Shown here piece by piece: positions 9,550-53,676 of a stretch of DNA of 58,715 bases (position 1 is its first letter; the number at the start of each line of letters is the position of its first letter). A program made the position numbers and the translations under genes. The stretch spans positions 1 to 58,715 of the forward strand of contig CAZYTO010000003.1 in NCBI GenBank assembly GCA_964650405.1. The letters run 5' to 3'. Source of the DNA: an uncultured Thermoanaerobaculia bacterium (GTDB lineage: Bacteria; Acidobacteriota; Thermoanaerobaculia; Gp7-AA8). Under the pieces are notes generated by a model. The model ran no database searches. It had not been told where the DNA came from and worked only from the letters and a program-made list of their open reading frames with translations.

Positions 9550-9561
9550 AAGAGTGCTCGC

Positions 9562-14192: not shown

Positions 14193-14201
14193 GCCGCAAG
14201 T

Positions 14202-18061: not shown

Positions 18062-18065
18062 AACG

Positions 18066-18147
18066 GAGTGCTGAGTGCCGAGTGCTGAGTGCCGAGTCTT
18101 TGAGCATGAGTCCTGAGGGCATGAGGCATGAGTAACGAGGCATGAGT
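18066..18147. repeat. Tandem family B then family C heptamer arms (one-sided)
   Basis: gagtgctgagtgccgagtgctgagtgccgagt then gagcatgagtcctgagggcatgaggcatgagt...catgagt. Confidence 0.85.
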
Positions 18148-18546: not shown

Positions 18547-19248
18547 CTATTCGATCTTGATCGAGCTCTTGGTCTTGTCGCGGCGGGCCTTTTCCTTTGC
18601 CGCGTACTCCTTGAGGCAGTTGTCCTTGTCCACCATCGAGCAGGCCCGGTAGTCGCTGATCTCTGCCATGACGCCGAGGATGGCCTTGCCGGTCGGCGTC
18701 TTTTCGTAGCCGCCCAGCGATCCGCCGAAGCCGCCGCGATAGACGCTCACACCGAGGCCGTTGCTCGTGGAGCGGGCCTCCACCGTGCGGGTGAACTCGA
18801 CTTCGCCGGTGGTGGTATCGACGACGCGGAGGTCGACGGCGATGTAGGCCTCCTCGTGCTTACCGCCCACGCCGATGCCGTGGAAGCTGATGCCGCCGCC
18901 GCCACCCGAGACGTTGTTCTGGAACGAACTGACGGTGGCGATGACGACGTACTGGGCTCCGGTCAGCTTGCCGAGCTTCGCCCCGGTCGACTTCGACACG
19001 CGCCCCGAGGCGGCCAGGTCCTGCTCATCGAGGATCGAGCCGAGGTTGTGCCGTTCGACCATCTTGAACTTTTCCGTTCCGGCAAGTTCATTGGTCAGCA
19101 TGCTGGCCAGATCGGTGCCGGTGCTTCCGCTCCACCAGCCGGCGCTGGTCTCATTCCGGAATTCTGCGACGGCCAGCACCGGCTTGGCGGCGAAGGCCGA
19201 GGAAACGAAAAACAACAACGACGTAGCGAGCAAAACAATCTTGCGCAT
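18547..19248 (-). CDS. CsgG/HfaB family protein
   Basis: Signal peptide; LAVAEF, DLASMLTNELAGTEKFKMVER..L..IL.EQDL..SG, GKLTGAQY, AVDLRVVDTTTGEV. Confidence 0.85.
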   Translation of the reverse strand: MRKIVLLATSLLFFVSSAFAAKPVLAVAEFRNETSAGWWSGSTGTDLASMLTNELAGTEKFKMVERHNLGSILDEQDLAASGRVSKSTGAKLGKLTGAQYVVIATVSSFQNNVSGGGGGISFHGIGVGGKHEEAYIAVDLRVVDTTTGEVEFTRTVEARSTSNGLGVSVYRGGFGGSLGGYEKTPTGKAILGVMAEISDYRACSMVDKDNCLKEYAAKEKARRDKTKSSIKIE

Positions 19249-19423
19249 TCTTTCCCCCGAGTTTGTGTCCGCCAATCTTAGTTCGAAACGGCCTTTCTGC
19301 TGTGACCGGTCTCACGGGCCCCGCCTGAAAAAGGAAACATCCGCCGGCCGCCGGAGGTCGTAGAATCGCTGCCTGGGTTCCCGCCCGGACAAAAATAGAA
19401 CCGCTGCAGAGAGAGAGCTCAGC

Positions 19424-22400
19424 ATGCGTCCATTCCGCGTTGCCGCGATTTTTACCGTGTCGATCCTCCTTTTGCTCGGCGTCGCCTTCCGCGAGGCCCT
19501 GGCGGTCTGTATCCCGCAGATCTACAACGTCACCTCGTCCGCGCCTCCGCCGATAGGGTTCTGGACCGATACGAGCGGAGCGGTCTGGAACCCGCCGGGA
19601 GGCTTCCCCGGCTGCGCTCCCGGCGATACGGCCGCGGACCCGAACCCCACCCCGACGACGCTCATCATCAACAGCGCCATTCCGAATCCCATCACCGGCC
19701 TCATTCTGTCCTGCCCGGGATGTGCGATCGACATCCAATCCGGCGGAAGCCTTACGCTGGCGGGTTCCGCCTCCCTCAGCAGTTCCTCGACGATCATCGT
19801 GGAGCCGGGCGGCCAGCTCACCATCGCCAACGGCGGGACGCTCACGTTCAATCCGGGAACATCTCTCTCGGTAAACGGCGGGCTCGTCGACGTGCAGACC
19901 GGCGGCGCTCTCGTGCAAAACGGAGCGAGCACAGTCACGAACGGCGGCACTCTGCGGCTCAGCGGCGGCACCTGGACCGTCGGCGCGTTGTTTACCGTGC
20001 AGAGCACCGGAACCATCGAGCTCGACGGCGGCACGGTCAACGGCGGCAGCACCGTCAACAACAACGGAACCATCTTGCAGAACAGCGGCACGACCAGCTT
20101 TTCGCCGGTGCTCAACAACTCCTCCGGCGCCCATCTCAACATCAACGGCGGAACGCTCTCGCTTGGCGGCGGCGGAACCGGCGGCGCACCCGTTGTCATC
20201 ACGGCAGGCGCCACGCTCGACTTTCCCAGCAGCACCTACACTCTCACGACGAACGGCACCGTCTCCGGCGCAGGCGCACTCCAGGTCAGCGGCGGCACAT
20301 TGTCCATCGGCGGCGTGACCTCGCCGTCGAACTTCACCATGACCGGCGGTACTCTCACCGGCGCCGGATTCATGACCGTGACGGGGACGTTCGCCTGGAG
20401 CGGCGGCACGCTCACCGGCAACGGCGGCACGCAGATCGCCGGTACCGGCTCGGGGAATTTCAGCGGCGCGAACGGCTCGATGATTCTCGACGGTCGCCTC
20501 TTCGACGACTACGGCTCCGTCGACTACAACGCGACGACGAACCCGCTGAATCTCATCAACGGCGGAGCCCTGGCCGTCTACGGTACGTTCAACTTCTCCA
20601 ACGATGGGAACATCACCGGCGACACGCTCTCCTCACTGACCATCAGCCCCAACGGCGTGCTGTTCAAGAACGGCGGCAGCGGAACATCGAAGATCTCGCC
20701 GAAGACCTACAACAACGCCACGGTATGGGTGTTCAGCGGCACGCTGGAGTTCGCCGGCGACGGCACGCACAACGGCAGCTTCGAGGCCTTCGACAACACA
20801 ACGCTCGTCTTCAGCGCAACCTCCACGACGCTGGGCGTCAATTCCTCCATCAGCAGCTCGCCGCTCGGCACGGTCGCGTTCCGCGGCGGCAGCGTGGCGG
20901 GCAGCGGCAACTTCCAGGTCGACGGTCTGACGACCCTGACCGGCTCGCCGTCGGTCAGCCTGGCCAACGGCGGCTACACGCACGACCTGACCATGGACAG
21001 CGGCTTCCTCACGCTCGCCAATCCCTTCGATCTCAAACACAGCGGGACGTGGTCGGGCGGAAAGATCACCCTGAACACGCCGGGGACGTTCCTCGTCGAC
21101 GCCGGCGCCACGCTCACCAACGACGGCGCGGCAGGGCCGACTTTCCTCTCCACCGGCGAGCTGCGGAACAACGGCACGTTTGTCTACAAGCCCGCCGCGA
21201 ATCCGCTGGAGCTCGACAACAACGCCGACATCGACAACGAAGGCCTCTTCGACCTGCAGACGGACACGGCCATCAAGAACGGCGTCGTCATCATCGGCTT
21301 CGCCCGCAGGGAGGCGCAGGGGGCAGGCTCCGCCCCGGCCAGGCGCGGCACGCGGCGGCCGGTGCACAACTGGGCGTCGGGGCCCTTCATCTACAACGGC
21401 GGCACGATGCAGAAGTCGGCCGGCAGCGGCACCCAGGACATCCAGCCGGCACTCGAGAACGACGCCACGGTCCTGGCCCTGAGCGGCGCGATGCAGTTCG
21501 ACAACGGCTACATGCAGAGCGCCGGCAAGACGACGCTCGGTCCGGGCGGCATCAAGATGAACGGCGCGCCGATGACGCTCACCGGCGGCACGCTCGACGG
21601 CAGCGGCACGGTGACCGGCGACGTCGCGAACACGTCCGGCACCGTCGCGCCGGGCGGCAACGGCACCATCGGCACGATCAACGTCACCGGCAATTACACG
21701 CAGGGCGCGGCGGCGTTCCTCGACTTCGACATTTCGGCAGTCGGGACGAACGACGTGCTGGCCGCCGGCAACGCCGTCACGCTCGACGGGCAGCTCGCCG
21801 TCACGCTCCTGGGCGGTTTCCAGCCCGCGAACGGCAACGTCTTCATCCCGATGACGTTCGCGTCGCGGACCGGCGACTTCGCCGCGACGAGCTTCCCGAC
21901 CTGGGCCAGCGGCCACGGCTCGTTCAGCAAGAGCTACACCCCGACGGAGCTGGATCTCAGCGCCACCGTCACACCGCCGTCGGCCGATCTCGCGGCGAGC
22001 ACCAGCGGTCCCGCCGGCGTCAACACCGGCGCGCCGCTCAGCTACACCGTCACCATCACCAACAACGGCCCGGATTCGTCGAGCGGGACGATCTCCGTCG
22101 CCGATACGCTCCCGGCCGGCGTCACCGGCGCGAGCGGAGCCGGCACGGGTTGGTCGTGCGGCGCACCCTCCGGCGGCGTCATCACCTGCACCACTACCGC
22201 GGTGGTCGCGCAGTCGGGCACCTTCCCGACGCTGACGTTCTCCATGACCGCTCCGTCCAGCGACGGCAGCGTGTCCGACAGCGCCACCGTCTCGTCGTCG
22301 TTCGATTCGGTGCCCGGCAACAACACGTCGTCCGCAAGCACCAACGTCCTCGTGGCCCAGGCTGACCTCTCCATCACCAAGAGCGGTCCGCCCTCGGTGA

Positions 22401-25400
22401 ACGCCGGGCAGAACATCGTCTACACCATCGTCGTGACCAACAACGGACCGCAGCCGGCGACGGGCGTGGTCGTCAACGACTCCACGCCTTCAGGCCTGAC
22501 GTTCGTTTCGAACAGCGGTGGCTGCACGACGGCATTCCCCTGCGCGCTCGGCTCGCTCACCGCCGGCCAGATCGTGACGATCACGTCGACGTTCAGCATT
22601 CCGCCGGCCTACGCCAACCCGAGCATCACCAATACCGCCTCCGTCAGCGGCACGACGTCCGACCCGAGCCTCGCCAATAACAGCGCCATGGCCACGACCA
22701 CCGTCACCGGCGTGACCGCGGCGGACGTGAGCGTCTTCAAGCACGCGCCGGGCGCCGGAAATCCGGGCGGCACGGTCGATTTCGCCATCGACGTCTTCAA
22801 CAACGGCCCGTCGGCCGCGTCGAACGTGCTCGTGACTGATCCCACGCCGGCCGGCCTGCAGTTCGTGTCGAATACCGGCGCCTGCACGACGCCGTTCCCC
22901 TGCACCATTTCGTCGATCGCGCCGGGCGCGCTGCAGGTCGTCATCGCCCGCTACAAGGTCACGGCCGGCGTTGGCACGCCGATCACGAACACGGTCACGG
23001 TCTCCAGCGCCACGAGCGATCCGAATCCGGCGAACAACACGAGCCAGGCGTCGTTCACAGTCAGCGCGCCGCCTCCCTGCCCGGCCGGCAAGCCGGTGCT
23101 CGCGACTCCCGCAGAAGGCGCGGCCAGCGCCTCACCCGCGTCGTTGTCATGGAGCGGCGTGGCCAACGCGCTCACGTACACCGTCAACATCACGGGCGCG
23201 ACCTCGGCCACGTTCACCACCGACCAGCTCTCGGCTTTGCAGGTCCTGCCGAACGGCAGCTACACATGGACCGTGGCTGCGAACTTCGCATCGCCCTGCG
23301 CATCGCAGACGTCGGCCGGCGGCCACTTCAGCGTCTGCTCTGTCCCCGACGCGCCCGTGGCGAGCGTCGTCGGAGAGTCCACGACCGGCCAGACCTACGC
23401 CGTGAGCTGGACGCCCTCCGGCGACAGCGGCAGTTACGAGCTGCAGGAGGCGGGCGACTTCAACTTCACCAATCCCGCGAGCCTCATGGTCAGCGGCACG
23501 TCACGCTCCTTTACGAAGACGGCCACTGCGGCTACGCCGTTCTTCTACCGCGTGCGCGCCATTGCCTGCGGCAGCACGCCGTTCTCGCATCCCATCGGGG
23601 TCGTCGTCGTGCCCATTCCCGGGCCGCACGATCCGCGCTTCAACGTCACCGTGCCGGCCGGCAGCACGACTCCGGTCGTCTTCCAGGTCTTCATCCCCGG
23701 CCTGCCGGGCGGGCCGGCGGCGTTCCTGGCCACGGCCGACAAACCGTGGATCGGCGTCCTTCCGCAGGCCGGCATCGTGCCGCAGGACGGGACGACGCTC
23801 ACCATCTCGCTCGATCCGAGCGATCTCGTGAACGGTACATGGACCGGCACGATCCTCGTCGTCTACACGACGCCGGGCTCGGGCAAGATCGAGAGCGACG
23901 GCTCGACCACGTCGTCGATCCCCGTATCCATCAGCCTGGTCACACCGGTCACGCCGGGCAGGCAGCCGGCGCCGACGGCCAATACGCTGATCATCCCCAC
24001 GGTCGGCCACCTCTTCGGCGTCGATTCGCAGTGGCAGAGCGACATCCGCGTGGCGAACCTCACCACGGCCCGGGCCAACTACCTCGTCACCTTCACCTCG
24101 GGCGACCCGAACACGCCCGTCAAGCAGACCACGCTGGCGATCGACGCCGGCGCCACCACGGCCCTCGACGACATCGTGCGCAACTGGTTCGGCGTCGGCT
24201 CGCTCAGCGACTCGGCCAACGGCCTGCTCTACATCCAGGCCACGGACAGCACCGGCCACATCCTCTCCGCCCGGGCGGCGAACGACGTGAGCGTCAACAA
24301 GATCACGGCCGTCTCCAGCCGCACGTACAACACGCAGGCGTCAGCGAGCTCGCCGGGAACGCTCGGACAGTTCGTTCCGGCCACGGCCTTCGCGAGCTTC
24401 ATCGGCAGGGCCGGTGGCGCGGCGGCCGCATCGCTGCAGAGCATCCAGCAGATCGCGCAGAACGACGCCTACCGCACCAACGTCGGCCTCGTGGAGGCAT
24501 CCGGCAAGTCCGCAGCCGTGGCCCTCAGCGTCTTCGACGGCGGCGGCAGCAAGCTGCTTTCCCTCCCCGTGACGCTCAATGGCGGCGAACAGCGGCAGCT
24601 CAACGCCCTGCTGGCCCAGAACAACATCAGCCTGACCAACGGCCGCGTGCAGGTGGAGGTCACCGGCGGCGACGGCCGAGTGCAGGCCTACGCCTCGGTG
24701 ATCGACGCCCGAAGCGGCGACCCCTTCCTCATCTCCGGCTCGTCCATCGGCGCGGCGGCCAGCAACTTCGTCGTTCCCGCCGTCGGCGACCTGAACCTCG
24801 GCACGGCAAGCTGGCGCAGCGATGTACGCATCTTCAACGCCGGCCTCTCGCCCCAGACGGCCTCGCTCACCTACTTCCCGAACGGCGATCCGTCGCACAG
24901 TACGTCCCAGACGGTCTCGCCCAACCCCGGCACGATGACGTCCATGGACAGCGTCGTCCCGTCCCTCTTCGGCCTCTCCAACCCCTGCGCCGCCCTGCCC
25001 GTGCCGACACCGCCGAACACCCAGCTCGTCTTCACTCCGCGCACGTTCGACCAGACCGCCAACGGGACGCTCGGGCAGTTCCTCCCCGCCGTGACCAACA
25101 CCGATGCCGTCGGCCGCAACGATCGTTCCCTGCAGATCCTGCAGGCCGAGGAGTCGGTGCGCTACCGCACGAACGTCGGGATCGCGGAGGTGACCGGCAA
25201 GCCGGCCACCGTCGAGATCGCGGTCTTCCTCCCCGACTCCAAGGTCGTCCCGCACGTGACTCTGCAGCTCGGCGCCAACGAGTCCCGCCAGCTCGACGTC
25301 CTCGGCGGCCTCGGCATCGGCGCGGCCTACAACGCCCGCCTCGCCATCCGCGTCACCGACGGCGACGGAAGGGTCACGGCGTACGGCTCGGTGGTGGACA

Positions 25401-25438
25401 TGACCACTCAGGCACCGACGTACATTCCGGCGCAGTAG
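19424..25438 (+). CDS. Giant secreted adhesin-like protein (2004 aa): beta-helix-like passenger, 3x DUF11, FN3-like, BACON-like, duplicated C-terminal module
   Basis: Signal peptide; G/T/N-rich GGTL repeats; ADLSITKSGP...YTIVVTNNGP DUF11 units; two copies of W.SD.R..N...RT[YF]....GTLGQF.PA...YRTNVG..E..G...AY.SV.D. Confidence 0.85.
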   Translation: MRPFRVAAIFTVSILLLLGVAFREALAVCIPQIYNVTSSAPPPIGFWTDTSGAVWNPPGGFPGCAPGDTAADPNPTPTTLIINSAIPNPITGLILSCPGCAIDIQSGGSLTLAGSASLSSSSTIIVEPGGQLTIANGGTLTFNPGTSLSVNGGLVDVQTGGALVQNGASTVTNGGTLRLSGGTWTVGALFTVQSTGTIELDGGTVNGGSTVNNNGTILQNSGTTSFSPVLNNSSGAHLNINGGTLSLGGGGTGGAPVVITAGATLDFPSSTYTLTTNGTVSGAGALQVSGGTLSIGGVTSPSNFTMTGGTLTGAGFMTVTGTFAWSGGTLTGNGGTQIAGTGSGNFSGANGSMILDGRLFDDYGSVDYNATTNPLNLINGGALAVYGTFNFSNDGNITGDTLSSLTISPNGVLFKNGGSGTSKISPKTYNNATVWVFSGTLEFAGDGTHNGSFEAFDNTTLVFSATSTTLGVNSSISSSPLGTVAFRGGSVAGSGNFQVDGLTTLTGSPSVSLANGGYTHDLTMDSGFLTLANPFDLKHSGTWSGGKITLNTPGTFLVDAGATLTNDGAAGPTFLSTGELRNNGTFVYKPAANPLELDNNADIDNEGLFDLQTDTAIKNGVVIIGFARREAQGAGSAPARRGTRRPVHNWASGPFIYNGGTMQKSAGSGTQDIQPALENDATVLALSGAMQFDNGYMQSAGKTTLGPGGIKMNGAPMTLTGGTLDGSGTVTGDVANTSGTVAPGGNGTIGTINVTGNYTQGAAAFLDFDISAVGTNDVLAAGNAVTLDGQLAVTLLGGFQPANGNVFIPMTFASRTGDFAATSFPTWASGHGSFSKSYTPTELDLSATVTPPSADLAASTSGPAGVNTGAPLSYTVTITNNGPDSSSGTISVADTLPAGVTGASGAGTGWSCGAPSGGVITCTTTAVVAQSGTFPTLTFSMTAPSSDGSVSDSATVSSSFDSVPGNNTSSASTNVLVAQADLSITKSGPPSVNAGQNIVYTIVVTNNGPQPATGVVVNDSTPSGLTFVSNSGGCTTAFPCALGSLTAGQIVTITSTFSIPPAYANPSITNTASVSGTTSDPSLANNSAMATTTVTGVTAADVSVFKHAPGAGNPGGTVDFAIDVFNNGPSAASNVLVTDPTPAGLQFVSNTGACTTPFPCTISSIAPGALQVVIARYKVTAGVGTPITNTVTVSSATSDPNPANNTSQASFTVSAPPPCPAGKPVLATPAEGAASASPASLSWSGVANALTYTVNITGATSATFTTDQLSALQVLPNGSYTWTVAANFASPCASQTSAGGHFSVCSVPDAPVASVVGESTTGQTYAVSWTPSGDSGSYELQEAGDFNFTNPASLMVSGTSRSFTKTATAATPFFYRVRAIACGSTPFSHPIGVVVVPIPGPHDPRFNVTVPAGSTTPVVFQVFIPGLPGGPAAFLATADKPWIGVLPQAGIVPQDGTTLTISLDPSDLVNGTWTGTILVVYTTPGSGKIESDGSTTSSIPVSISLVTPVTPGRQPAPTANTLIIPTVGHLFGVDSQWQSDIRVANLTTARANYLVTFTSGDPNTPVKQTTLAIDAGATTALDDIVRNWFGVGSLSDSANGLLYIQATDSTGHILSARAANDVSVNKITAVSSRTYNTQASASSPGTLGQFVPATAFASFIGRAGGAAAASLQSIQQIAQNDAYRTNVGLVEASGKSAAVALSVFDGGGSKLLSLPVTLNGGEQRQLNALLAQNNISLTNGRVQVEVTGGDGRVQAYASVIDARSGDPFLISGSSIGAAASNFVVPAVGDLNLGTASWRSDVRIFNAGLSPQTASLTYFPNGDPSHSTSQTVSPNPGTMTSMDSVVPSLFGLSNPCAALPVPTPPNTQLVFTPRTFDQTANGTLGQFLPAVTNTDAVGRNDRSLQILQAEESVRYRTNVGIAEVTGKPATVEIAVFLPDSKVVPHVTLQLGANESRQLDVLGGLGIGAAYNARLAIRVTDGDGRVTAYGSVVDMTTQAPTYIPAQ

Positions 25439-25516
25439 TCGCTGATTCGCTTAGTCGCTTATTCGCTTAGTCGCTTATTCGCTGTTCGCTGTTCGGTGTT
25501 CGCCGTTCGCTGTTCG
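25436..25516. repeat. Family F arm (TTCGCTTA/GTCGCTTA octamers then TTCGCTG heptamers)
   Basis: tagtcgctgattcgcttagtcgcttattcgcttagtcgcttattcgctgttcgctgttcggtgttcgccgttcgctgttcg; inverse of 27754-27892. Confidence 0.92.
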
Positions 25517-25550
25517 TGACTCTGCCAACGCTCTACGCAATAATGCCGGC

Positions 25551-27713
25551 ATGCGACCGGTCCTCGCACTCCTCGTTCTTGTTGTCACCGGTGTCCTCGC
25601 CGCGGACGAGCATCCCGTGGCATCGCCTGCCGCCACAATTCCGCCGGGCACGCAACGCGCGGCGGCCGTTGCCACCGACGGTTCCGGGTTCCTGACCATC
25701 TGGAACGACCATCGCAGTTTCGGCAGCGATTTCCCTCGGATCTGGGCGGTCCAGACGAATGCCTCCGGCAAGCGTTCTTCCCCGATCCTCCTCCAGGATC
25801 AAACCATAGGCGCGACACCGGAGTGGCCCTGGGATCCGTATGACGACCAGATGACTGTCGTCTGGACCGGTGCGGTCTATCTCGCCGTCTGGTACGACTG
25901 GCCCGCAAGGAAGACCCATACGATGCGGCTCGACCGCACCGGCCATCAGCTCGACGCCGTCCCACGCGAGATCGCTACGAGGGGGCAGATCGTGGGAGCG
26001 GCCTCGGACGGCACGCGGACGATGGTGGCCGTCCTGCCAAACCTGAAGCCCGCGCAGCTCCTGTTCTTCGATGCGAACGGAGAGCCCGCACGCGATCCGC
26101 TCGACATGGCTTATGGCACCGTCCCCATTGCCTTCGCTTCGAACGGTCACGGCTTTCTGATGATCTACTCCATGATTACCACTGGTACGTCGAGCCAGTC
26201 GTACATGGGCCCCATCTCCGCCGACGGAGTGCTTGGAAGCAGCGTTCCCTTCGACTTCGGCCGCCTCTACTGCATCACAACGGACGGAACCGATTATCTG
26301 GTCGTCTACCGTGATCACGTGGGCTTCGTTGCGTACTATCGATACGACGCCACCGGAAGACTCGTCGGCGGTCGGCACGGCGTCGATGCGTCGACATCAG
26401 GTGCGAGCGCGACCCCCTATCTCAGCGGCTGGCTGGTGCAGACGGCCAGTCCCGCAGGCAGCCGTCTGCGTCATCTCGATCATGACGGGGTTTACCTCGA
26501 GGACGTACCGATGGCTGCCCCCGACGCCGGCGGCGTCCTGGCAACAAACGGAAGCCAGGTGCTTTACGCCCACGGACACCTGACGACGAGTGTGCTGTAC
26601 CAACAGATCCTGGGCAACGGCCCTGACGAGTTGCTGCAACCGGGACCGCCGACGCAAACGCAACCTCGCCTGACAGGCGGAGGTAAGGGCTATGCCGCGC
26701 TGTGGGACGAGGCGCGGGAGACGAAGGAATTGCGCGCGGCGCGTGTCGACGCGCACGGAGCGCCACTTGACGGCGAGGGCCTGGTCGTGACGCGGAGCTC
26801 GCACTACGACGGCTCGACGGCGATCGCCTTCGACGGCGCGAACTACATCGCCGCCTGGGGCGACAACAGCGCCGGCCAATGCAGCATCCACCTTGCGCGC
26901 ATCACACCCGAGGGAACACTCCCGGACGGCCTCAACGGCCATCTCGTCTACTACGCCTGCGTACCCCGCCTCGCGCTCGGTTCGGGCCCCGATCGCGTTC
27001 TGCTCGTCTGGACTCAGTTCGACGGAAATGCGTACGGAAGTTCCTGGGCATTGGTCATGGACCGGAACCAGATCCCGATCTCCAATCCGGTGCGATTGCC
27101 GGAGGCCTACAGAGACGCTGAAGTCGCGGTGGGATGGAACGGCACGAATTGGCTGGTCGCCTGGACCAGCTCGACCTTCGTCTATTACAACGGGTACCAC
27201 TACACCTATTACATCTACACCGCGCGGATCGCGGCGGATGGCTCGTTGGTCGGCCAGGCCGCTCGCGTCATTGCGCAATCATTCGATAACGAGAATGCGC
27301 TCTCCGTCGGTTCGAACGGTGCCGATTTCGTCGTCGCCTGGCAATCGTGGGACGCAACCGTCCTCAATCCTCCCTACTCGCTTCATGCCCTCAGGGTCTC
27401 CCCCGATGGGACGCCCGGCGCCTCCGTGAGTCTCGGCAGCGGCACAAGGCCGTCTGCCTCATGGACAGGCACTGATTATGTCGTCGGATTCCAGGACGGC
27501 GATGCTCTTTACACGACAACGCTCGGTCAGCCGTCCAAACGCCAACTCCTCGCCACGGCCGGTGGTTCAAACTCGACGGTCATGCTCGCCTTCGCTGCTT
27601 CCGGTTCACTGGCCAACCTCTACCTCCGCAACGCATGGGAGTGGCCCTACCTCACCACACTCACCGCCTTCCTCAACGCAAGTGCCGGACCCCACCGGCG
27701 CGCCGCACACTGA
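25551..27713 (+). CDS. Secreted hypothetical protein with about 12 'A.A.DG..FLVVW.D' repeats (probable double beta-propeller)
   Basis: Signal peptide; repeats such as VATDGSGFLTIWND, ITTDGTDYLVVYRD, AFDGANYIAAWGD, VGWNGTNWLVAWTS, VGSNGADFVVAWQS; more A/T-ending codons than its neighbours; C-terminus HRRAAH. Confidence 0.75.
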   Translation: MRPVLALLVLVVTGVLAADEHPVASPAATIPPGTQRAAAVATDGSGFLTIWNDHRSFGSDFPRIWAVQTNASGKRSSPILLQDQTIGATPEWPWDPYDDQMTVVWTGAVYLAVWYDWPARKTHTMRLDRTGHQLDAVPREIATRGQIVGAASDGTRTMVAVLPNLKPAQLLFFDANGEPARDPLDMAYGTVPIAFASNGHGFLMIYSMITTGTSSQSYMGPISADGVLGSSVPFDFGRLYCITTDGTDYLVVYRDHVGFVAYYRYDATGRLVGGRHGVDASTSGASATPYLSGWLVQTASPAGSRLRHLDHDGVYLEDVPMAAPDAGGVLATNGSQVLYAHGHLTTSVLYQQILGNGPDELLQPGPPTQTQPRLTGGGKGYAALWDEARETKELRAARVDAHGAPLDGEGLVVTRSSHYDGSTAIAFDGANYIAAWGDNSAGQCSIHLARITPEGTLPDGLNGHLVYYACVPRLALGSGPDRVLLVWTQFDGNAYGSSWALVMDRNQIPISNPVRLPEAYRDAEVAVGWNGTNWLVAWTSSTFVYYNGYHYTYYIYTARIAADGSLVGQAARVIAQSFDNENALSVGSNGADFVVAWQSWDATVLNPPYSLHALRVSPDGTPGASVSLGSGTRPSASWTGTDYVVGFQDGDALYTTTLGQPSKRQLLATAGGSNSTVMLAFAASGSLANLYLRNAWEWPYLTTLTAFLNASAGPHRRAAH

Positions 27714-27753
27714 GCACGCGAAACGCTGTGCACCGCGAATCACGCAGCACGAA

Positions 27754-27892
27754 AAGCGAATAGCGGATAAGCGACTTCGCCGATAAGCGAACAGCGAATA
27801 AGCGAATAAGCGATTAAGCGATTAAGCGATTAAGCGAATAAGCGAATAAGCGAATAAGCGAATAAGCGAATAAGCGAATAGGCGAATAAGCG
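27754..27892. repeat. Family F arm: tandem AGCGAATA/AGCGATTA octamer array
   Basis: About 14 near-perfect units ending directly at the arnT-like stop codon. Confidence 0.95.
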
Positions 27893-29392
27893 TCACTCCA
27901 ACTTCTTCATCTTCGGCCACGCTTTCCGCAGGTCCCAGCCGCGCGGATGCTGGACGAGGAAGAGGGTGAAGTGTTCCTGGTCCATGGCGTAGGGGTGGCC
28001 GATCTCGGCCATCGGTTTCACCACGGCGAACTTGCGCTCCAGGGTCTCCCGGTCGTCGCCGAGGACGAGGAGGCTGTCACCGGTGTACTGGCGAGGACCC
28101 CAGGTCCAGTTGGAGACGTGCGTACCGATCGATTTCGGCAGACCGTAGCGCGGTCCGTAGAAGTCGATCGCGCCTGACTGTCCGTAGTCATTGCCGAAGA
28201 TGGCCGTCTGCGCGCGCTGGTCGGGAGGAAGGCTGTACCAGGCATGGGCCACGGTGGCGACCATCTCCGGCCAGCCGAAGCGGTCGGCGAAGAGCTGCGG
28301 CATGGACGTCGTCTTGCGATGTTCGAAGCGCGGCTGCTGCAGGTGGGTGAGCTGCGTGTAGCGCTCGTAGGCCGCAGGCGGGAGCACGGGCACGAGAATC
28401 GGCGCGATGAGCGCGCCACCGATGGCGATGAGCGCGGCATAGGCGACCCCGAGCCAGCGGCGCTGCTCCGTGGCGCGCTCGAGAGTGACAGCGCCGGCGG
28501 CGATGAGCATGACGAAGGCCGGGAAGAGGTAGTAGAAGCGCCCGTTCGCCGCAAGCAGCACCGCGAAGGCAATGAGCCAGGTAAGACCGAGGACGCGGAA
28601 GCGCTTCTGCGCGCCGAAGAGGAGCGACACGAGGCCGGCGATCCACACCGGCGCCGCCACCGGGCTGGCCATCAAGCCGTCGAAAAGCAGGAAGACCAGA
28701 GGGTTCATCTGTACATCGCGGCCGTTGCGCTTGATGTTGGCCAGCATCTCCACGTGCGGAAAGTGATTGCGGATCTCCCACAAAAGGTTCGGCAGGAAGA
28801 TGGTGAAGGCGATCACGCCGGCCAGCACGAACCAGCGGTTGAACATGAGCTTCCGATCCGCAGTGAGCAGCAACGCCATGACGATCGAGAACCCGAAGAC
28901 GAGCATCGTGTGCTTGTTCAAAAGCCCGACGCCCGACAGCAGACCGAAGACTAGCCACCAGCGCGGATCGCCGCCTTTCAGGATGCGCACGACGACGATG
29001 GCGCAGCCGGTCCAGATCAGCGGCTCGATGGCATTCATCGACAGGTAACTGCAGAACACGAGGTATCCGGGCGCCACCGCGACGACCAGCGCCGCCACGA
29101 TCTGCGCGAACCGCCCCCCGCCCAGCTCGCGCACCAGCACTCCCGCCAGCAGCACCAGCCCCGCCCCCGCCAGCGAGGGGAAGAGGCGGATGGAGTACGG
29201 CGAGTCGCCGAAGAGATGCCGGGTCAGCCAGGCCTGGAAGGCCGTAAGCGGCGGCATGTCGATGAACCCCCAAGCCAGGTGCTGCCCGCAGGCCAGGAAG
29301 TACAGCTCGTCGATGAAGAAGCCGTAGAGCGTCGCCGTGGCCATGTGGAAGGCGAGGGTGAGCGTGGCGAGCAGGGCAACGATTCTGTTCAT
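27893..29392 (-). CDS. ArnT/PMT-like (GT39/GT83) membrane glycosyltransferase
   Basis: FIDELYFLACGQHLAWGFIDMPPL, IRLFP, SMNAIEP, GLLNKHTM, FLPNLLW. Confidence 0.87.
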   Translation of the reverse strand: MNRIVALLATLTLAFHMATATLYGFFIDELYFLACGQHLAWGFIDMPPLTAFQAWLTRHLFGDSPYSIRLFPSLAGAGLVLLAGVLVRELGGGRFAQIVAALVVAVAPGYLVFCSYLSMNAIEPLIWTGCAIVVVRILKGGDPRWWLVFGLLSGVGLLNKHTMLVFGFSIVMALLLTADRKLMFNRWFVLAGVIAFTIFLPNLLWEIRNHFPHVEMLANIKRNGRDVQMNPLVFLLFDGLMASPVAAPVWIAGLVSLLFGAQKRFRVLGLTWLIAFAVLLAANGRFYYLFPAFVMLIAAGAVTLERATEQRRWLGVAYAALIAIGGALIAPILVPVLPPAAYERYTQLTHLQQPRFEHRKTTSMPQLFADRFGWPEMVATVAHAWYSLPPDQRAQTAIFGNDYGQSGAIDFYGPRYGLPKSIGTHVSNWTWGPRQYTGDSLLVLGDDRETLERKFAVVKPMAEIGHPYAMDQEHFTLFLVQHPRGWDLRKAWPKMKKLE

Positions 29393-29453
29393 GCGCGGCA
29401 AGATCGGCTCGCGCCGCAGCCGGGGCCACGAGTTTGGGACGGGCGGAGGGGAA

Positions 29454-29576
29454 GGGGGATGAGCGGCTTGAAGTGAGGAGTGGTTAGAAGGTGAGTGGCT
29501 AGGCTTCTTCGGCCTGCCCTGGTACACCTAACCACTCACCTTCGAACCACTCCTCACTTCAAGCCGCTCATCCCCC
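29454..29576. repeat. 50-bp near-perfect inverted repeat (2 mismatches, 23-nt loop)
   Basis: 29454-29503 gggggatgagcggcttgaagtgaggagtggttagaaggtgagtggctagg versus the reverse complement of 29527-29576. Confidence 0.93.
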
Positions 29577-29637
29577 CATCCCTCCTTTCATCCCACAGGA
29601 GAAGCGCGCGGCCGCCGGTCGCGTTACTCTCCTCACC

Positions 29638-30678
29638 GTGCGCGTCAAGCCCGCAATTCTCATCTTCCTGGCCTTCACCTTCATCGGGCTGCTGAACTTC
29701 AGCATCGTCGAGGCGAGCTGGCTGGCGGAGGAAAACAGCCGCGCGGCGAAGTATCCGTTCGTCTGGGAGATCACCGGTGCCTACGGCGTGCTTCTGCTCC
29801 TTCCCGCGCTGCTCTTCGTCTTTCGCCGGTGGCCGATCGACCGGCTCTCGCGCGTGCCCCTGCACGTGGCCGTCTTCGTGACCTTCGCGGTCTCGCACAC
29901 GCTGCTGATGTGGGGCAGCCGTGAGGTGATTTACCGCCTCCTTGGATGGGGAACGTACGACTACGGCGCGATGCGTTACCGCTTCCTCATGGAGGGGCAG
30001 AAGCAGATCATCATCTACGTCGCCCTCTACGGCCTCCTCCGTTTCCTGGCCTACCTGCGCGTCAACCGGGAGCGCGACGCCCAGCTCACCGAGGCGCGGC
30101 TGGCGGCGCTGAAGATGCAGTTGCAGCCGCACTTCCTCTTCAACGCCCTGAACATGATCGCCTCGCACGTCCGCGACGATCCGGAGACGGCCGCGGCGAT
30201 GATCGAGCACCTCTCCAGCTTCCTCCGGGCGACGCTGCGCAGCTCCGCGGCACAGGAAGTACCGCTGCGGGAGGAGATCGACTTCCTCGACAGTTACCTG
30301 GCCATCATGAAAGCGCGCTTCGAGGAGCGTCTGCGCGTAGACGTCACCCTTCCTGCCGACGTGCGGGAAACGCTCGTGCCCCACCTGCTGCTGCAGCCGG
30401 TCGTCGAGAACTCGATCACGCACTCGCTGAAGGACCACGCCCGCCGCGCCGAGATCCGCATCGCCGCCGAGCACCGCGGCGACCGCCTGCGGCTGACGAT
30501 CGAAGACAACGGCCCCGGCCTCCGTGAGGACGCCGCCGTCTCCGGCAACGGCATCGGCCTGGCCAATACGCAGGCCCGGCTCCGTCACCTGTACGGCGAC
30601 CGGCAGCAGCTCACGCTCGCCAACCGCGACGAGGGCGGTCTGCGCTTGACCATCGAACTGCCGTGGAGAACGGCGTGA
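29638..30678 (+). CDS. LytS/YehU-type membrane sensor histidine kinase
   Basis: Four TM helices; LAALKMQLQPHFLFNALN; EVPLREEIDFLDSYL; LQPVVENSI; DNGPG; GIGLAN. Confidence 0.93.
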   Translation: MRVKPAILIFLAFTFIGLLNFSIVEASWLAEENSRAAKYPFVWEITGAYGVLLLLPALLFVFRRWPIDRLSRVPLHVAVFVTFAVSHTLLMWGSREVIYRLLGWGTYDYGAMRYRFLMEGQKQIIIYVALYGLLRFLAYLRVNRERDAQLTEARLAALKMQLQPHFLFNALNMIASHVRDDPETAAAMIEHLSSFLRATLRSSAAQEVPLREEIDFLDSYLAIMKARFEERLRVDVTLPADVRETLVPHLLLQPVVENSITHSLKDHARRAEIRIAAEHRGDRLRLTIEDNGPGLREDAAVSGNGIGLANTQARLRHLYGDRQQLTLANRDEGGLRLTIELPWRTA

Positions 30679-31424
30679 CGGCGCAGGTCAGCACGCGGGT
30701 CCTCATTGCCGACGACGAGGCTCCCGCCCGCCGCCTGGTGCGCTCGTACCTCGGCGGCCGCGAGCACGTCGAAGTGATCGGCGAGGCGGAGAACGGCCTG
30801 GAGGTCGTCGATGCCGTCCGCTCGCTCGAGCCGCAACTGGTCATCCTCGACATCCAGATGCCCGGCATGACCGGCTTCGAGGCCATCGAAGCCATCGGCG
30901 CCGAGCACATGCCGGCCGTCATCTTCGCCACCGCCTACGACGAGTTCGCCCTCCGCGCCTTCGACGTCCACGCCGTCGACTACCTGCTCAAGCCCTTCTC
31001 GCGCGACCGCTTCGACCGGGCCTTCGACCGCGCCCTCACCCAGATCGGGAGTGACCGGCAGAACATCACCCGCCTCATCGCCTCGCTGCCGCAGACACCG
31101 GCGCACCTCGAGCGCCTCGTCGTGCGTCACGGCGAGCGGCTCTTCTTCGTCGCCGCGCGCGACATCCTCCACCTCACCGCCGAAGGCAACTACGTCCGCG
31201 TCCACACCGCCGGCGGCGCGCATCTGATCCGCGGCACGCTGGCCGACCTCGAGACGCGTCTCGACCCGGGCCGCTTCGCCCGCATCCACCGCTCCGGCGT
31301 CGTCAACATCGACGCCATCCAGGAGGTGCGTGCCCACGCTCACGGCGACTACCTCATCGTGCTGAACACCGGGGCCGTCCTCCGACTCTCGCGGCGCTAT
31401 CGGGAACGGCTGCTGGGCGAGTGA
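30675..31424 (+). CDS. LytTR family response regulator
   Basis: IADDE, LDIQMPG, FATAYDEFAL, DYLLKP; LytTR AEGNYV...FARIHRSGVVN; GTGA overlap with the kinase stop. Confidence 0.93.
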   Translation: MTAQVSTRVLIADDEAPARRLVRSYLGGREHVEVIGEAENGLEVVDAVRSLEPQLVILDIQMPGMTGFEAIEAIGAEHMPAVIFATAYDEFALRAFDVHAVDYLLKPFSRDRFDRAFDRALTQIGSDRQNITRLIASLPQTPAHLERLVVRHGERLFFVAARDILHLTAEGNYVRVHTAGGAHLIRGTLADLETRLDPGRFARIHRSGVVNIDAIQEVRAHAHGDYLIVLNTGAVLRLSRRYRERLLGE

Positions 31425-31632
31425 TCTACCTCGTCTCACCTTCGCGAGCGGTGGTTATTCGCATCTTCGTGTCCCGTCATGGAAAGCGCCCGGTGCAAGC
31501 TCCTCCAGCACGCCCATCGTTTTCATGACGCGCAAACAACGCCTTCATCCTCAAATGGTTGAGGCTGTTCCCTTCTTTTGGGAAACGTGACCCACATCAC
31601 GCGCGGGGCCACTGCACAGCCGAAGATGGAGG

Positions 31633-32604
31633 GTGATGACAGCTCCTCCGCGCCGCCGTTGGAACGACGATCGTCAGTCCAAGGCCGGCGAACCGGTGGC
31701 CCTCGTCGTCGAGCACGACGGGGCGTATCGCGACTACCTCGCTTCGCTGGCACGGCGCATCGGTTTTGCCGCCGAAGAGGCAAGCGACGGCGACACCGCC
31801 ATGGCTTCGCTGGCCCGAACGCCCGCGGACTTCATCATGGTCGACCAGGACGTGCCGCGCCTGAGCGGTGTGGACCTCATCTCGCGCGTGCGGTCGGACG
31901 AAGAAGTGAAGGACGTCTATGCGGTGATGCTCACCGGCCGCGATGACGTGAACATGAAGCTCTCGGCCCTCGCCGCCGGCTTCGACGACCTGGTGCCCAA
32001 GAGCTCCGCCGAGGAAGAGCTGCTGGCCAAGATCACCGCGGCGCGGCGCATCGTGGCCCGGCAGCGGGCGCTCGCCGAGAAGATGCACGAGATGTACGGC
32101 CTGGCCATGCACGACGAGCTGACCGGGGTCTTCAACCGCCGCTTTCTCCTCGCCGAGCTCACCCGCCTGCTCAACAACGGCGCCAGCGTCGGCCTCGTGC
32201 TGTTCGACCTCGACGACTTCAAGGTGGTCAACGACACGTTCGGCCACCTGGCGGGCGACCGCGTGCTCCGCGACCTCGGTGCGCTGTTCCACGGCACCAC
32301 CCGCCCCGACGATCTGATCGCCCGCTACGGCGGCGACGAGTTCGTGCTCATCACCCGCGACGTTCCCGCAAACGAGCTCACCCGCATCGCCGACCGCATC
32401 GCCGGCGAGATCCGCAGCCTGAAGTGGTCCACCGGCGAATCGACCTTCGGCATCAACGTCACGTCCGGCGTGGCCGCCTCGGCAAGCGCCGCCTCCCCTC
32501 TCGAGCTGCTCGAAGCCGTCGACCGCGCCCTCTACCGCAGCAAGGGCGCGCGCAAGAGACCGGAGAGAGGCCCGGAACCGGCAAAGATCGAATTGATCCG
32601 CTGA
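31633..32604 (+). CDS. Receiver-GGDEF diguanylate cyclase
   Basis: Receiver (IMVDQDVP, DDLVPK); HDELTGVFNRR, DLDDFKVVNDTFGHLAGD, I-site RPDD, RYGGDEF. Confidence 0.92.
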   Translation: MMTAPPRRRWNDDRQSKAGEPVALVVEHDGAYRDYLASLARRIGFAAEEASDGDTAMASLARTPADFIMVDQDVPRLSGVDLISRVRSDEEVKDVYAVMLTGRDDVNMKLSALAAGFDDLVPKSSAEEELLAKITAARRIVARQRALAEKMHEMYGLAMHDELTGVFNRRFLLAELTRLLNNGASVGLVLFDLDDFKVVNDTFGHLAGDRVLRDLGALFHGTTRPDDLIARYGGDEFVLITRDVPANELTRIADRIAGEIRSLKWSTGESTFGINVTSGVAASASAASPLELLEAVDRALYRSKGARKRPERGPEPAKIELIR

Positions 32605-32649
32605 CGCGGGTACGGCGTTGCGGGGTAACCCTGTCACCCCAGCACCCGC
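32605..32649. repeat. Short degenerate family J hairpin between convergent genes
   Basis: gcgggtacggcgttgcgggg/taaccctgtcaccccagcacccgc. Confidence 0.5.
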
Positions 32650-34535: not shown

Positions 34536-34584
34536 GGGGTCGGGTTGGTTTGGCGGGTTGCGAGGTTGCGGGGTTGCGGCTTGC
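34536..34584. repeat. Family J octamer (GGGTTGCG) arm
   Basis: gcgggttgcgaggttgcggggttgcggc. Confidence 0.7.
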
Positions 34585-34922: not shown

Positions 34923-34930
34923 CAAGAAAA

Positions 34931-35016
34931 GAGTGCCGAGTGCTGAGTGCCGAGGGCGGTACGAAGGCACTCGGCACCCCTCAGCACTCAGTACCCGGCA
35001 CTCAGCACTCGGCACT
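34931..35016. repeat. Family B heptamer hairpin
   Basis: gagtgccgagtgctgagtgccgag ... gcactcggcacccctcagcactcagtacccggcactcagcactcggcact. Confidence 0.88.
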
Positions 35017-36290: not shown

Positions 36291-38447
36291 TCAGTCGTTT
36301 GAACCGACGACCGGAAACAGCTCCAACACGCGATCGTAGAGACTTTTCGCGTCCGGTGTGGAACGTTTGAGGGCAATCTCCGCCAAGCGGATCATGGCAC
36401 GCGCGATATCCTCGGTGATACCGTGCTCGAGCGCCTGCTCGAGGATTTCTCGCAACAGGCTTGTCGAGCCCAGCCCGCTGGTGTCCATAAGTTCGATCCA
36501 ACTCTGGATGGCCTCCTTCCTTGGACGGCGGCGAATGCCCGAGCTGCGAACGAACGTCGCCTCGATATTGGCCACCTCCGGCGCCAGACGCTCGATCGCC
36601 TCCGCGCCCGTACCGGCGCTCTTGTTTAACAACTCCATGTAGTGGGCGTCAGCGCGCAGCTTGTCCTCTGTCGCTGGCGCATGTTGCTGCGAGACGTACT
36701 CACGCAGCGGAACAACCATGCGAACGCGCCTCCCCTCGTCCATGACAAGCGAGCGCCCGCGCAACTCGTCGGCCGCATCGTCGGGCTTCAAGAAAACACT
36801 CGGCAAGTCGCGGTGCGCCACTCCCTCAGGGAAGAGCGCCAGAACCGAGAGTAAGCGACGCGCATCGATCGTCAGGGCGCCAATCGACAGCTCATAGAAG
36901 GCCGCACGATCGTCGATCGTCGTGGAGCGCATCACCTTCCAGCGATTCCACACCGTCTCCAGGGAAGAGTATCGCTCCGCGAACGGTGCCATCAGAGTGA
37001 TTTCCAACGGTATACCGTCGAGAAGTCCGAGAATGCGCGGGAGATACGGATCTTTCGCAAATTCTTTCTTCGATCCGGCCAGGAACGCATAGCGCGCCGC
37101 CGTGTCGGACAGTCTCTTCGGTTCGATCCGGCCCCCCCATGCCACTTTGCGCGGCCGCTGCGAGCCGCGGAGGGTCACGACTAACGCAAGCGACTCTATG
37201 TTTGCGAGATCGACGAGCAGTTGCTCAACGTTGTCGCGATCCCAGTCCAGCGGCGTTTCGGCGTTGTCGAGGACGAGCGCGGCGGGCCCCTTCTTCATCA
37301 GGGCGAGAACATCGCGCTCCGTCTCGCCGGTGACGGCGACGCCGGCGGCCTGGGCGATCGCTGCCACCACTTCCGCCCGACTCTTCGCGCCATGGCATCG
37401 CACGAACCACCGGCGGCCGCGAAAGGGGCGCGCAACCGCCTTGTTCTTAATTGCCTTCTTTGCGATGGGTGTTTTCCCGATGCCAGGGGCCCCTTGAATC
37501 AACATCGTCTGGGGACAGTTCTTCGACAGCCCCCTGACCACTCGGCTCACTTCCCTGGAGCGCCCAAAGCAGTAACCGACGGGCGGTAGAGCCTCGGCCG
37601 GGATCCGCCGATCCGCGAACGTCTTGCGCAGAAACGGCGTGAGATCGTGGTAGCCGTCGCCGTACGAGATGAACGCCAGACAGGAGCCCGGATAACGCTG
37701 TCGAAGCGGCTCCTTCTCACTCGTACGACAGAGGCAGTAGTGACGATACCCGGACCTTCTGAAGAGTCTGTCGATCCACTCGATCAGGGGACCTAAATTC
37801 GGATCGCTCAGGCCATCGCCGCAACCGATGAAGAGCAACGTGTCGTGGATGGAGATCGCTTTCTGGATGGCTTGTGCATGCTCGCTGTGTTGCAGCGCCT
37901 CGTAAGAGCGGATGCCGAGGATCACCGACTCGGGACGATCAAAATAGCCGTGCAGATGCAGGACGCCTTTGCGGTCGCCGTGGACGAATTCGGAGACGGC
38001 TGCCACATCGGTCCAGTCGATGTCTTGGAGACCGTCGCGGCCGCGGCTGAGCAAATCGTCGTAATTCGTCGTGGCGATGCGAGCGCCGAGGTCGTGGATC
38101 GCATCGATGAGCGTGCGGTCGCGCAGTTCCAGCTTGCCGAGGCTGCGGTTCAGCCAGACGCGGAATTCGCCGCCGCCCGACCCGCCGAGCGCTTCCGTCA
38201 GGCGCTCGGCGACCTCGATGCGACGCGCGGGATCGTTTTCGTCCAGTTGCCCAAGGAGCCTCTCGCCTTCCGCGTCGGTGAGCCGGCTCGTCCCAGCGCA
38301 ATGGCTGATTCCAGCGCGAATCAGGCCGTCCCACGAGGCGCAAAAATCTCCCGTGGCTTGAATCGACGCGCCGCTCCCGACGACGATCAGCACCCTGTCG
38401 GCCGACAGGTCCTTCCGCAGGTCATCGATGAGAACCCCCTGACCCAT
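36291..38447 (-). CDS. SIR2-like (SIR2_2) domain + STAND/NB-ARC-like NTPase + truncated TPR region
   Basis: VVGSGAS, ATTNYDDLL, VLHLHG, TLLFIGCG..LSDPN; Walker A GAPGIGKT; Walker B LVLDNAE; GIPLEI (GxP); about 1.5 TPR-like units before TGA. Confidence 0.8.
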   Translation of the reverse strand: MGQGVLIDDLRKDLSADRVLIVVGSGASIQATGDFCASWDGLIRAGISHCAGTSRLTDAEGERLLGQLDENDPARRIEVAERLTEALGGSGGGEFRVWLNRSLGKLELRDRTLIDAIHDLGARIATTNYDDLLSRGRDGLQDIDWTDVAAVSEFVHGDRKGVLHLHGYFDRPESVILGIRSYEALQHSEHAQAIQKAISIHDTLLFIGCGDGLSDPNLGPLIEWIDRLFRRSGYRHYCLCRTSEKEPLRQRYPGSCLAFISYGDGYHDLTPFLRKTFADRRIPAEALPPVGYCFGRSREVSRVVRGLSKNCPQTMLIQGAPGIGKTPIAKKAIKNKAVARPFRGRRWFVRCHGAKSRAEVVAAIAQAAGVAVTGETERDVLALMKKGPAALVLDNAETPLDWDRDNVEQLLVDLANIESLALVVTLRGSQRPRKVAWGGRIEPKRLSDTAARYAFLAGSKKEFAKDPYLPRILGLLDGIPLEITLMAPFAERYSSLETVWNRWKVMRSTTIDDRAAFYELSIGALTIDARRLLSVLALFPEGVAHRDLPSVFLKPDDAADELRGRSLVMDEGRRVRMVVPLREYVSQQHAPATEDKLRADAHYMELLNKSAGTGAEAIERLAPEVANIEATFVRSSGIRRRPRKEAIQSWIELMDTSGLGSTSLLREILEQALEHGITEDIARAMIRLAEIALKRSTPDAKSLYDRVLELFPVVGSND

Positions 38448-38640
38448 TGATGGAATTATGCTCGTGAGCTAGCGAGCGGCGTAGGGATACTCGCACGAAA
38501 TGCTATCTCCCGTGACGAGAGCAATTGAGGTTGACGTGTGGTTGCACAGGGCGAAGACCATTATTGCGATGTGTGCGCGCGAATCGCGTTGGGTGCCAGC
38601 TTCAATAAGCCGAAAACATTATCGCGTGCGCCCGCGTCGC

Positions 38641-43565: not shown

Positions 43566-43572
43566 GCGCCCT

Positions 43573-44843: not shown

Positions 44844-44844
44844 C

Positions 44845-50454: not shown

Positions 50455-53676
<3,222 letters not shown>

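Follow-up and report, generated by a model that had tools for sequence, protein, structure and literature searches.

How does a complete gene come to lie between the two arms of what resembles a single intergenic hairpin? The question is raised by a locus in a 58.7-kb chromosomal contig (about 66% G+C) from the metagenome-assembled genome of a soil bacterium of the class Thermoanaerobaculia (Acidobacteriota), the whole of which was analysed here and is called the window. Two inverted arrays of tandem 7- and 8-nt units lie there 2233 nt apart, the first abutting the stop codon of a gene for a large surface adhesin and the second abutting that of a convergent gene for a membrane glycosyltransferase of family GT39; the interval is occupied by one gene, which we call gX. 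The two arms are homologous, being copies of one element and not a chance pair, and the array family to which they belong is bound to the 3' flank of the GT39 gene across at least six related contigs. Our leading reading, put forward tentatively, is that a single palindrome was split by inserted DNA.

Two homologous arms and the gene between them

The locus comprises the following features, in window coordinates.

25436-25516, plus strand: left arm ("T-array"), six 8-mers (TKAKTCGC), then five 7-mers of the TGTTCGC / GTTCGCT type
25516-25544, plus strand: promoter-like site, GTGACT, 17 nt, AATAAT (sigma-70-like)
25551-27713, plus strand: gX, an accessory gene for a 720-aa secreted tandem beta-propeller protein, function unassigned
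27714-27790, no strand assigned: irregular inner block of degenerate 7- and 8-mers including GTGCACC, part of the conserved GT39 flank
27750-27892, plus strand: right arm ("G-array"), about 18 units AAGCGAAT / AAGCGATT, regular from 27791 and abutting the GT39 stop

The left arm, with its first base on the adhesin TAG, is built of TAGTCGCT/TATTCGCT repeated three times and then of the 7-mers; the right arm ends one base short of the TCA (TGA) of the convergent GT39 gene. The arms measure 81 and 143 nt and are 87-92% complementary over 48-61 nt, and the longest exact stretch between them, TCGCTTATTCGCTGTTCGCT, covers 20 nt and spans the switch from 8-mers to 7-mers. The mirror layout, with 8-mers outside and 7-mers inside, extends along all 81 nt of the left arm. 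All 18 matches to the unit pattern in the window fall within the two arms (0.18 expected), and in the window together with some 2.5 Mb of fetched loci the family is confined to the GT39 locus. The predicted duplex between the arms has a folding energy of -115 kcal/mol, as against -47 +/- 6 for shuffled sequences; single arms fold weakly (-0.24 kcal/mol per nt), and after virtual excision of the interval the join folds at -0.5 kcal/mol per nt, like other palindromes of the window. Read along the gene at whose stop it lies, each array has the form (CGCTTATT)n(CGCTGTT)n. An assembly artefact is unlikely, given that the exact match between the arms is only 20 nt long and that an independently assembled relative (L081, below) repeats the adjacency and orientation of gX and GT39. 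No covariance model of Rfam 15 matched positions 25200-28100 on either strand at E <= 1, and no T-run follows the palindromes, as examined for the gX region.

A previous description of the locus, made from its letters only and referred to below as the sequence-only reading, had presented the arms as mutually inverse about a common junction, the left one starting in the adhesin TAG and the right one ending at the stop of a convergent arnT-like gene, around one complete gene with an AATAAT box 6 nt before its ATG and an excess of A/T-ending codons. Each of these points is borne out, the junction lying inside the 20-nt exact stretch.

The sole open reading frame (ORF) between the arms, gX is an accessory, rapidly diverging and compositionally odd gene. 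Its content of G+C at third codon positions (GC3), 0.757, is the lowest among about 35 long ORFs of the window selected by GC3, the others ranging over 0.79-0.93. The protein has a signal peptide, as judged from reading the sequence, and about 12 repeats of around 55 aa, and it matches nothing in Pfam or NCBIfam; its AlphaFold2 model is all-beta (predicted local distance difference test score 85), and the top Foldseek matches in the PDB are multi-blade and tandem beta-propellers. A search among 5.8 billion proteins returned one close relative, P0001, at 48% identity, the remainder being at most 31% identical and from other phyla; a scan of a metagenome collection with a gX alignment returned only relatives of 22-31% identity, again from other phyla and of no use for synteny. 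The 40 distant homologues for which both flanks were available lie next to neither an adhesin nor a GT39 gene, and inverted arrays do not flank any of them. Since the -10 box lies 6 nt from the ATG and there is no Shine-Dalgarno sequence, we reasonably infer that the gX mRNA is leaderless; the box, ATAATGCC...ATG, is kept in L081.

The GT39 flank in related contigs

The GT39 gene, whose orthologues are 68-90% identical, is the conserved anchor of the locus, and we compared the window with eight related contigs that carry an orthologue, short contigs among them. The closest relatives come from JGI 3300047312 (L082), 3300035170 (L172), 3300048898 (L168), 3300082034 (L083) and 3300036803 (L165), and, from Logan, SRR28401841 (L081) and SRR31724276 (L167). 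Loci are named in the orientation of the window, with the GT39 stop at the right; T denotes an array that reads like the left arm and G one that reads like the right arm. Percentages are GT39 identities, and the layouts of L165, L172 and L082 are given outward from GT39.

Window: CsgG-like gene, adhesin, T, gX, G, GT39
L083 (82%): CsgG-like gene, T-arm of 46 nt, GGTGCACC, G-arm of 33 nt, GT39
L081 (84%): T'-array of AATCGCC-type 7-mers, ATAATGCC..ATG gX orthologue TGA, 3 nt, GT39 stop
L167 (same 90% cluster as L081): G'-arm, 16-nt loop, T'-arm, GT39 stop; without gX
L165 (91%): GT39, three copies of an 86-nt element, solo G-array, unrelated co-directional PALP gene
L172 (same 90% cluster): GT39, solo array of (CGCTTATT)x3 and five 7-mers, palindrome of another family, repeats; without gX
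L082 (90%): orthologous G-array of 5.5 units, including the junction common to the window's arms, then 118 nt

Orthologues of the right arm, shorter and in the same place, are thus present in L082, L165, L172 and L083; in L168 only the first array unit is visible before the contig ends. The content beyond the GT39 stop differs in each of the eight related contigs. Because the DNA beyond the array is different in every relative, the DNA just beyond the GT39-side array is a gene-content hotspot, with the array as its fixed edge. gX is absent from L165, L172, L167 and L083; the more distant L001-L015 (GT39 68-79% identical) lack gX, the adhesin and the array family of the gX locus. In 80 species-level genomes retrieved through the GT39 protein, synteny is kept on the far side of the gene, and downstream there is no gX, no adhesin and no array of this family in any of them; these genomes are too distant to be informative on what the site looked like when empty.

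An intact palindrome stands at the orthologous site in L083. It follows the GT39 stop directly, with a loop, GGTGCACC, of about 8 nt, and folds at -58.8 kcal/mol (z = -5.4). The left flank of L083 is homologous to window 19226-19319; the start of the CsgG-like gene of the window ("gene Z", MRKIVLL) and its upstream DNA to position 19319 align with the DNA beside the L083 palindrome, so that gene Z forms the far edge of a stretch missing from L083. Relative to L083 the window has 8.4 kb of extra DNA (19320 to about 27716), which consists of the adhesin, the left arm and gX, not of gX alone; the T-array lies inside it. The distal arm of the L083 palindrome matches the left arm of the window at 38 of 44 positions, roughly colinearly, and both contain the rare unit TTCGGTG.

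L165, which is syntenic with the window for more than 17 kb on the other side of GT39, allows one boundary to be placed: the irregular block of the window, at 27716-27790, aligns with the stretch between array and PALP start in L165, which puts the breakpoint between window and L165 no more than about 10 nt from the gX stop. A clean case is offered by L081 and L167, in which the last 600 nt of GT39 are 93% identical and the T'-arm of L167 is colinear with the array of L081. The two differ by a gX indel of about 11 nt, the ORF and 3 nt, bounded by the array end and the GT39 stop. The palindromes of L167 (G-loop-T) and L083 have opposite polarities, and neither can be turned into the other by inversion.

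Some further observations concern the same flanks. The 86-nt element between GT39 stop and array is present as three tandem copies in L165 (11501-11755) and as one in L082 (2186-2311). In L082 a 24-nt stretch of the GT39 3' end is repeated after it, giving the appearance of a small insertion that duplicated a long target. A gX C-terminus (..SAGRRGRRPPH*) was considered for the last 118 nt of L082, which are too short to call. In L172, past the array and the second palindrome, positions 1830-1950 are AT-richer and made of tandem repeats of about 40 nt (gaaagctgccggtttacaaagaaagccgggagcctgccaga).

Two candidate readings: a split palindrome or a resident gene

Given an intact palindrome in a relative and two homologous arms in the window, the arms may be the two halves of one palindromic 7/8-nt-unit array belonging to the GT39 3' flank, between which, in the window lineage, gX-carrying DNA would have been placed near the old loop. 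The host's own recombination or repair, at work on a hairpin liable to break, could have done this, the repeats themselves not acting as a mobile element. We prefer this reading, in full awareness that it is a tentative one, because of the intact element of L083, a loop-like remnant in the window, a mirror identity with L172 and the low GC3 of gX. The remnant is CGCTG-TGCACC (CGCTGTGCACC), retained just 3' of the gX stop, which matches the L083 palindrome at its loop and inner end. The mirror identity is that of the GT39-side array of L172, which on the opposite strand matches the left arm of the window at 56 of 61 positions (92%) without gaps, as would be expected of the distal arm of a palindrome; the window's own arms match at 54 of 61. 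That the event was an insertion and not a later copying of an arm, and that break repair was the mechanism, we infer.

Several observations weigh against a split. No clear target-site duplication surrounds gX, the flanking sequences CCGTTCGCTG and CGCGAAACGCTG being only about 9/13 alike and both within repeat units. Two separate differences from L083 must be accounted for, since the T-arm of the window has the adhesin on its left and gX on its right, and the colinear match of the L083 distal arm includes three 1-nt gaps and scores 52, only modestly better than the 43 of the reverse-complemented right arm. In L081 there is no right arm, and gX is found outside any loop, with a palindrome arm on one side and the GT39 stop on the other; if gX predates the split between window and L081, the arms cannot be a freshly split hairpin. 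The neighbour-joining tree of GT39, (((window, L082 group), L081 group), L083), has its three deep branches (window clade, L081/L167 and L083) near a trichotomy. The GT39-side arrays of L165 and L172 are solo, and a solo array may thus be the ancestral state.

Nearly as good an explanation, and one that we regard as a serious if somewhat less probable competitor, is that gX was resident or arrived independently, and that the arrays are separate elements placed after the adhesin and GT39 stops, one of them having arisen later from the other by inverted copying or conversion. The arrays would then be inverted only since the genes converge, and the L083 palindrome would be two copies side by side. 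Such a history accommodates the convergence of gX on GT39 in the window and in L081, on different branches, with an array upstream in both and no right arm in L081, as well as the solo GT39-side arrays of L165 and L172 and the agreement in sense between each window array and the gene that ends beside it. Solo arrays are also common, with at least eight in the window and about 157 among the 214 arrays of a 1.37-Mb set (the window and 88 related loci).

The conservation of the units bears on the same alternative. Window 25456-25516 and L172 1472-1532 (the 92% match above) are more alike than the coding DNA beside them, the last 600 nt of GT39 being 88% identical, and this despite the different position and opposite orientation of the two arrays. 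How alike the arms are is therefore of little use for dating and may reflect function; the conservation suggests that the unit sequence is under selection, perhaps because a protein binds to it.

On the other side, a resident gX would call for the inverted copying of an 80-nt array to a spacer 2.2 kb away, for which there is no known mechanism, and the longest exact match of 20 nt is short for RecA-driven conversion. Whether solo arrays in general share the sense of the gene they follow was checked by eye; such a rule is inconsistent in the window, failing for instance at 3019-3065 and 7476-7503. The remnant CGCTGTGCACC after the gX stop is left unexplained.

A wider version of the split-palindrome reading, which we think unlikely, would make the tandem-unit palindromes of Thermoanaerobaculia intergenic DNA break-prone sites at which whole genes are gained or lost almost ORF-precisely, no dedicated recombinase being required, and would amount to palindrome-guided turnover of accessory genes. 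It is similarly doubtful that the loci then represent one element seen intact (L083), reduced to its GT39-side arm (L165 and L172) and split around a gene (window). Were a split palindrome the true history, the locus would belong to a natural series in which a hairpin-forming repeat serves as a breakpoint for gene gain and loss with neither transposase nor integrase; it would exemplify a passive, structure-driven turnover of accessory genes beside the known element-driven routes, and would help to explain the abundance of tandem-unit palindromes in the poorly studied soil Acidobacteriota. Were gX a resident gene, the locus would amount to two repeat arrays flanking a variable surface-protein locus.

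Two improbable readings: repeat-guided capture and a functional long-range repeat

The sequence-only reading had gone further and proposed that a foreign gene was inserted into, or mobilised by, the hairpin, with the repeats guiding the capture. Its first half fits the homologous arms, the intact palindrome of L083 and the accessory nature of gX, and sits badly with L081, where gX lies outside the palindrome and no right arm is present. L081 also supplies the case that had been named as refuting the idea, a relative that keeps the gene without the arms, with gX convergent to GT39 and 3 nt between the stops. The empty site that it predicted (adhesin stop, hairpin, GT39 stop) was not found among the relatives; the far side of the L083 palindrome is the CsgG-like gene.

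Active capture, in which the array or hairpin would be a mobile or recombinogenic module carrying genes as cargo, in the manner of a cassette or of a REPIN (a hairpin formed by paired repetitive extragenic palindromic, or REP, sequences), we hold to be improbable. L081 and L167 differ by a clean gX indel that ends at the array end and the GT39 stop, one window palindrome encloses another in its loop, so that things do land between arms, and three breakpoints between window and relatives fall at array edges; breakpoints there are to be expected anyway, since arrays fill most spacers. Against this, no transposase, integrase, invertase or Y1 domain (of the type of RAYT, the REP-associated tyrosine transposase) was detected in 36 ORFs scanned in this one contig, in line with the earlier remark that no transposase or integrase is nearby. 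The array family is found only at the GT39 locus, inverted arrays are missing from the flanks of the 40 distant gX homologues, and the position of gX relative to the palindrome differs between the two lineages. The 1.37-Mb set, which contains 29 short-loop palindromes, was scanned, as had been proposed, for other genes between inverted arms of one family with odd GC3, and the scan was negative. Far-apart solo pairs of the same family are about as often direct (about 5) as inverted (5-6), showing no excess of the latter; genes enclosed elsewhere by same-family arrays have GC3 at or above the locus median, gX being the exception, and the gX pair has the most 8-mers in common of all far pairs (17). 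Guided capture or mobilisation thus draws no support from the scan, the homologue flanks or the recombinase search.

A local spread of array families was also considered, and the count of about 12 far same-family pairs among some 150 neighbouring pairs is close to chance with about 10 dispersed families and argues neither way.

A present function for the long-range inverted repeat, as an invertible on/off segment for gX or as a 5'-3' RNA clamp on an adhesin-gX co-transcript, has the strong predicted pairing of -115 kcal/mol in its favour and is very improbable, given that no invertase or other recombinase gene was found in the window, that the promoter-like site lies inside the segment, so that a flip would not switch gX, that gX has the same orientation in the window and L081, and that L081 lacks the right arm, so that the arrangement is not conserved.

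Comparison with known systems

For DNA inserted into an intergenic palindrome, the nearest precedents are the insertion sequences (IS) that target REP palindromes or bacterial interspersed mosaic elements (BIMEs), IS1397 and ISPpu9/10 among others (PMC1525189, PMC12288879). There, as would be the case here, intergenic palindromic repeats end up flanking DNA inserted in or beside a hairpin. The target in those cases is a REP of 20-40 nt and the inserted IS brings its own transposase, whereas the gene enclosed here is an ordinary one for a secreted protein, with no transposase found in the window and with arms of tandem 7/8-mers 80-140 nt long. The locus falls outside the IS, composite transposons and miniature inverted-repeat transposable elements, which are recognised by a transposase or by terminal inverted repeats together with a target-site duplication.

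REPINs, mobilised by RAYT transposases (PMC3116915, PMC2817692), were the analogy used in the sequence-only reading, and they too have two inverted repeat arms that form a hairpin; they are multi-copy and intergenic. They differ in having single-REP arms and a short spacer. REPIN families have hundreds of dispersed copies; in the window and about 2.5 Mb of fetched loci, the family of the gX locus was found at one locus. In place of inverted REPs of 20-40 nt with a short spacer, the arms here measure 81 and 143 nt and stand 2233 nt apart. The literature consulted records no REPIN that carries cargo. Integron cassettes are similar in that a near-exact ORF unit has a hairpin-forming repeat at its end and varies in presence or absence; gX differs from them in its own promoter-like site and in arms on both sides. 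As judged from the domain scan of the window and the layout of the repeats, which are tandem 7/8-mers, there is no IntI and no attI/attC architecture, which sets the locus apart from integrons.

Short tandemly repeated repetitive sequences of cyanobacteria are tandem hepta- or octanucleotide intergenic repeats. Among repeats of comparable unit length are the TAACTGA repeats of Beggiatoaceae and cyanobacteria (PMC4679880) and the "paired sites" of Geobacter metallireducens, in which three TCTCCGTS[Y] repeats lie on opposite strands at variable distance (PMC2700814). All share short tandem units of 7-9 nt and an intergenic position, with a function presumed to be regulatory at most, and the paired sites, being inverted pairs of variable spacing, are the best architectural match to the arrays of the gX locus. 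Their unit sequences are unrelated to those found here, and they are not reported as surrounding whole genes or coinciding with gene-content breakpoints.

Palindromes are fragile: hairpins or cruciforms are cleaved by SbcCD / Mre11-Rad50, and error-prone repair follows. Of established processes, fragility of this kind could best explain breakpoints at an array or loop with no dedicated recombinase. It is known mainly for deletions and inversions of the palindrome itself, and gene capture at such a break in a natural bacterial genome is not documented here.

Tandem-unit palindromes across the window

Arrays of this kind are abundant in the contig. The window has about 10 complete palindromes made of tandem 7/8-nt units, whose loops span 7-55 nt. 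Solo arrays number at least eight, and overall there is about one palindrome or solo array per 3 kb.

Palindromes: 595-729, 1658-1729, 9446-9550, 11289-11351, 14198-14319, 34930-35016, 44719-44843, 46559-46647, 56546-56641
Solo arrays: 3019-3065, 6124-6155, 7476-7503, 18064-18146, 34554-34584, 43463-43569, 50383-50455, 54079-54116

They fall into about 10 unit families, among them CGTTGTT, AAGGGCG, GAGTGCC, AAGGCTG, ACGCGGAG, GGGTTGCG and ACCCGGY, with a fixed polarity in each family, and the families reappear at distant sites and in related genomes (L083 847-1036, L172 1578-1650). The earlier statement that loops elsewhere are about 10-60 nt agrees with nine palindromes of the window and has one exception, a palindrome of the AAGGGCG family at 53780-54069 whose 219-nt "loop" holds a nested ACGCGGAG/CTCCGCGT palindrome at about 53913-53980. 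With a "loop" of 2233 nt the gX site lies outside the class of short-loop hairpins (loop of about 60 nt or less), to which L083 and the nine window sites belong. A literature search found no description of tandem-unit palindromes in Thermoanaerobaculia. A broader and perhaps more useful lead is that these abundant, conserved and undescribed palindromes of the clade coincide with gene-content breakpoints.

Neighbouring genes and other features of the window

Three genes border the locus.

18547-19251, minus strand: CsgG-like lipoprotein gene ("gene Z"; Pfam CsgG, E 4e-51)
19424-25438, plus strand: adhesin, a DUF11 repeat surface protein of 2004 aa (Pfam DUF11, E 2.5e-56; GC3 0.909)
27893-29392, minus strand: GT39 / PMT_2 membrane glycosyltransferase, "arnT-like" (Pfam PMT_2)

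The C-terminus of the adhesin, ...PTYIPAQ followed by the TAG that abuts the left arm, is a natural end, the GCGCAGTAG ending being conserved in homologues; a search with the C-terminus returned only relatives of 50-56% identity, and both contexts inspected were unrelated. The true start of the GT39 protein is M46 of the long ORF, at 29392, and the resulting 499-aa form is the recorded product for the contig, P0055.

Elsewhere, a pair of genes for a TPR protein and a DUF4331 protein (43573-46513) is absent from L165 and is bounded in the window by arrays of different families, at 43463-43569 and 46559-46647. Also absent from the otherwise syntenic L165 is a low-GC island at 36291-40479, which encodes on the minus strand a protein with SIR2_2 and NB-ARC/AAA domains (STAND-type, defence-like; 36291-38447) and a PAS histidine kinase (38641-40479). 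The first of these ORFs, low in GC and 718 aa long, had been considered as a gX paralogue and was rejected, being the SIR2-STAND protein.

The divergent spacer between GT39 and a LytS-type histidine kinase contains a 69-nt inverted repeat (29435-29503 / 29527-29595) that is 87% complementary, with a 23-nt spacer; the same spacer in L083 holds a cluster of three array families. Beyond it, the minus-strand ORFs 29554-30588, 30585-31439 and 31597-32637 are shadows of plus-strand genes, as called from relatives that are 70-80% identical on the plus strand versus about 50% on the minus strand; the real genes encode a His_kinase protein (29638-30678), a LytTR response regulator (30663-31424) and a GGDEF response regulator (31633-32604).

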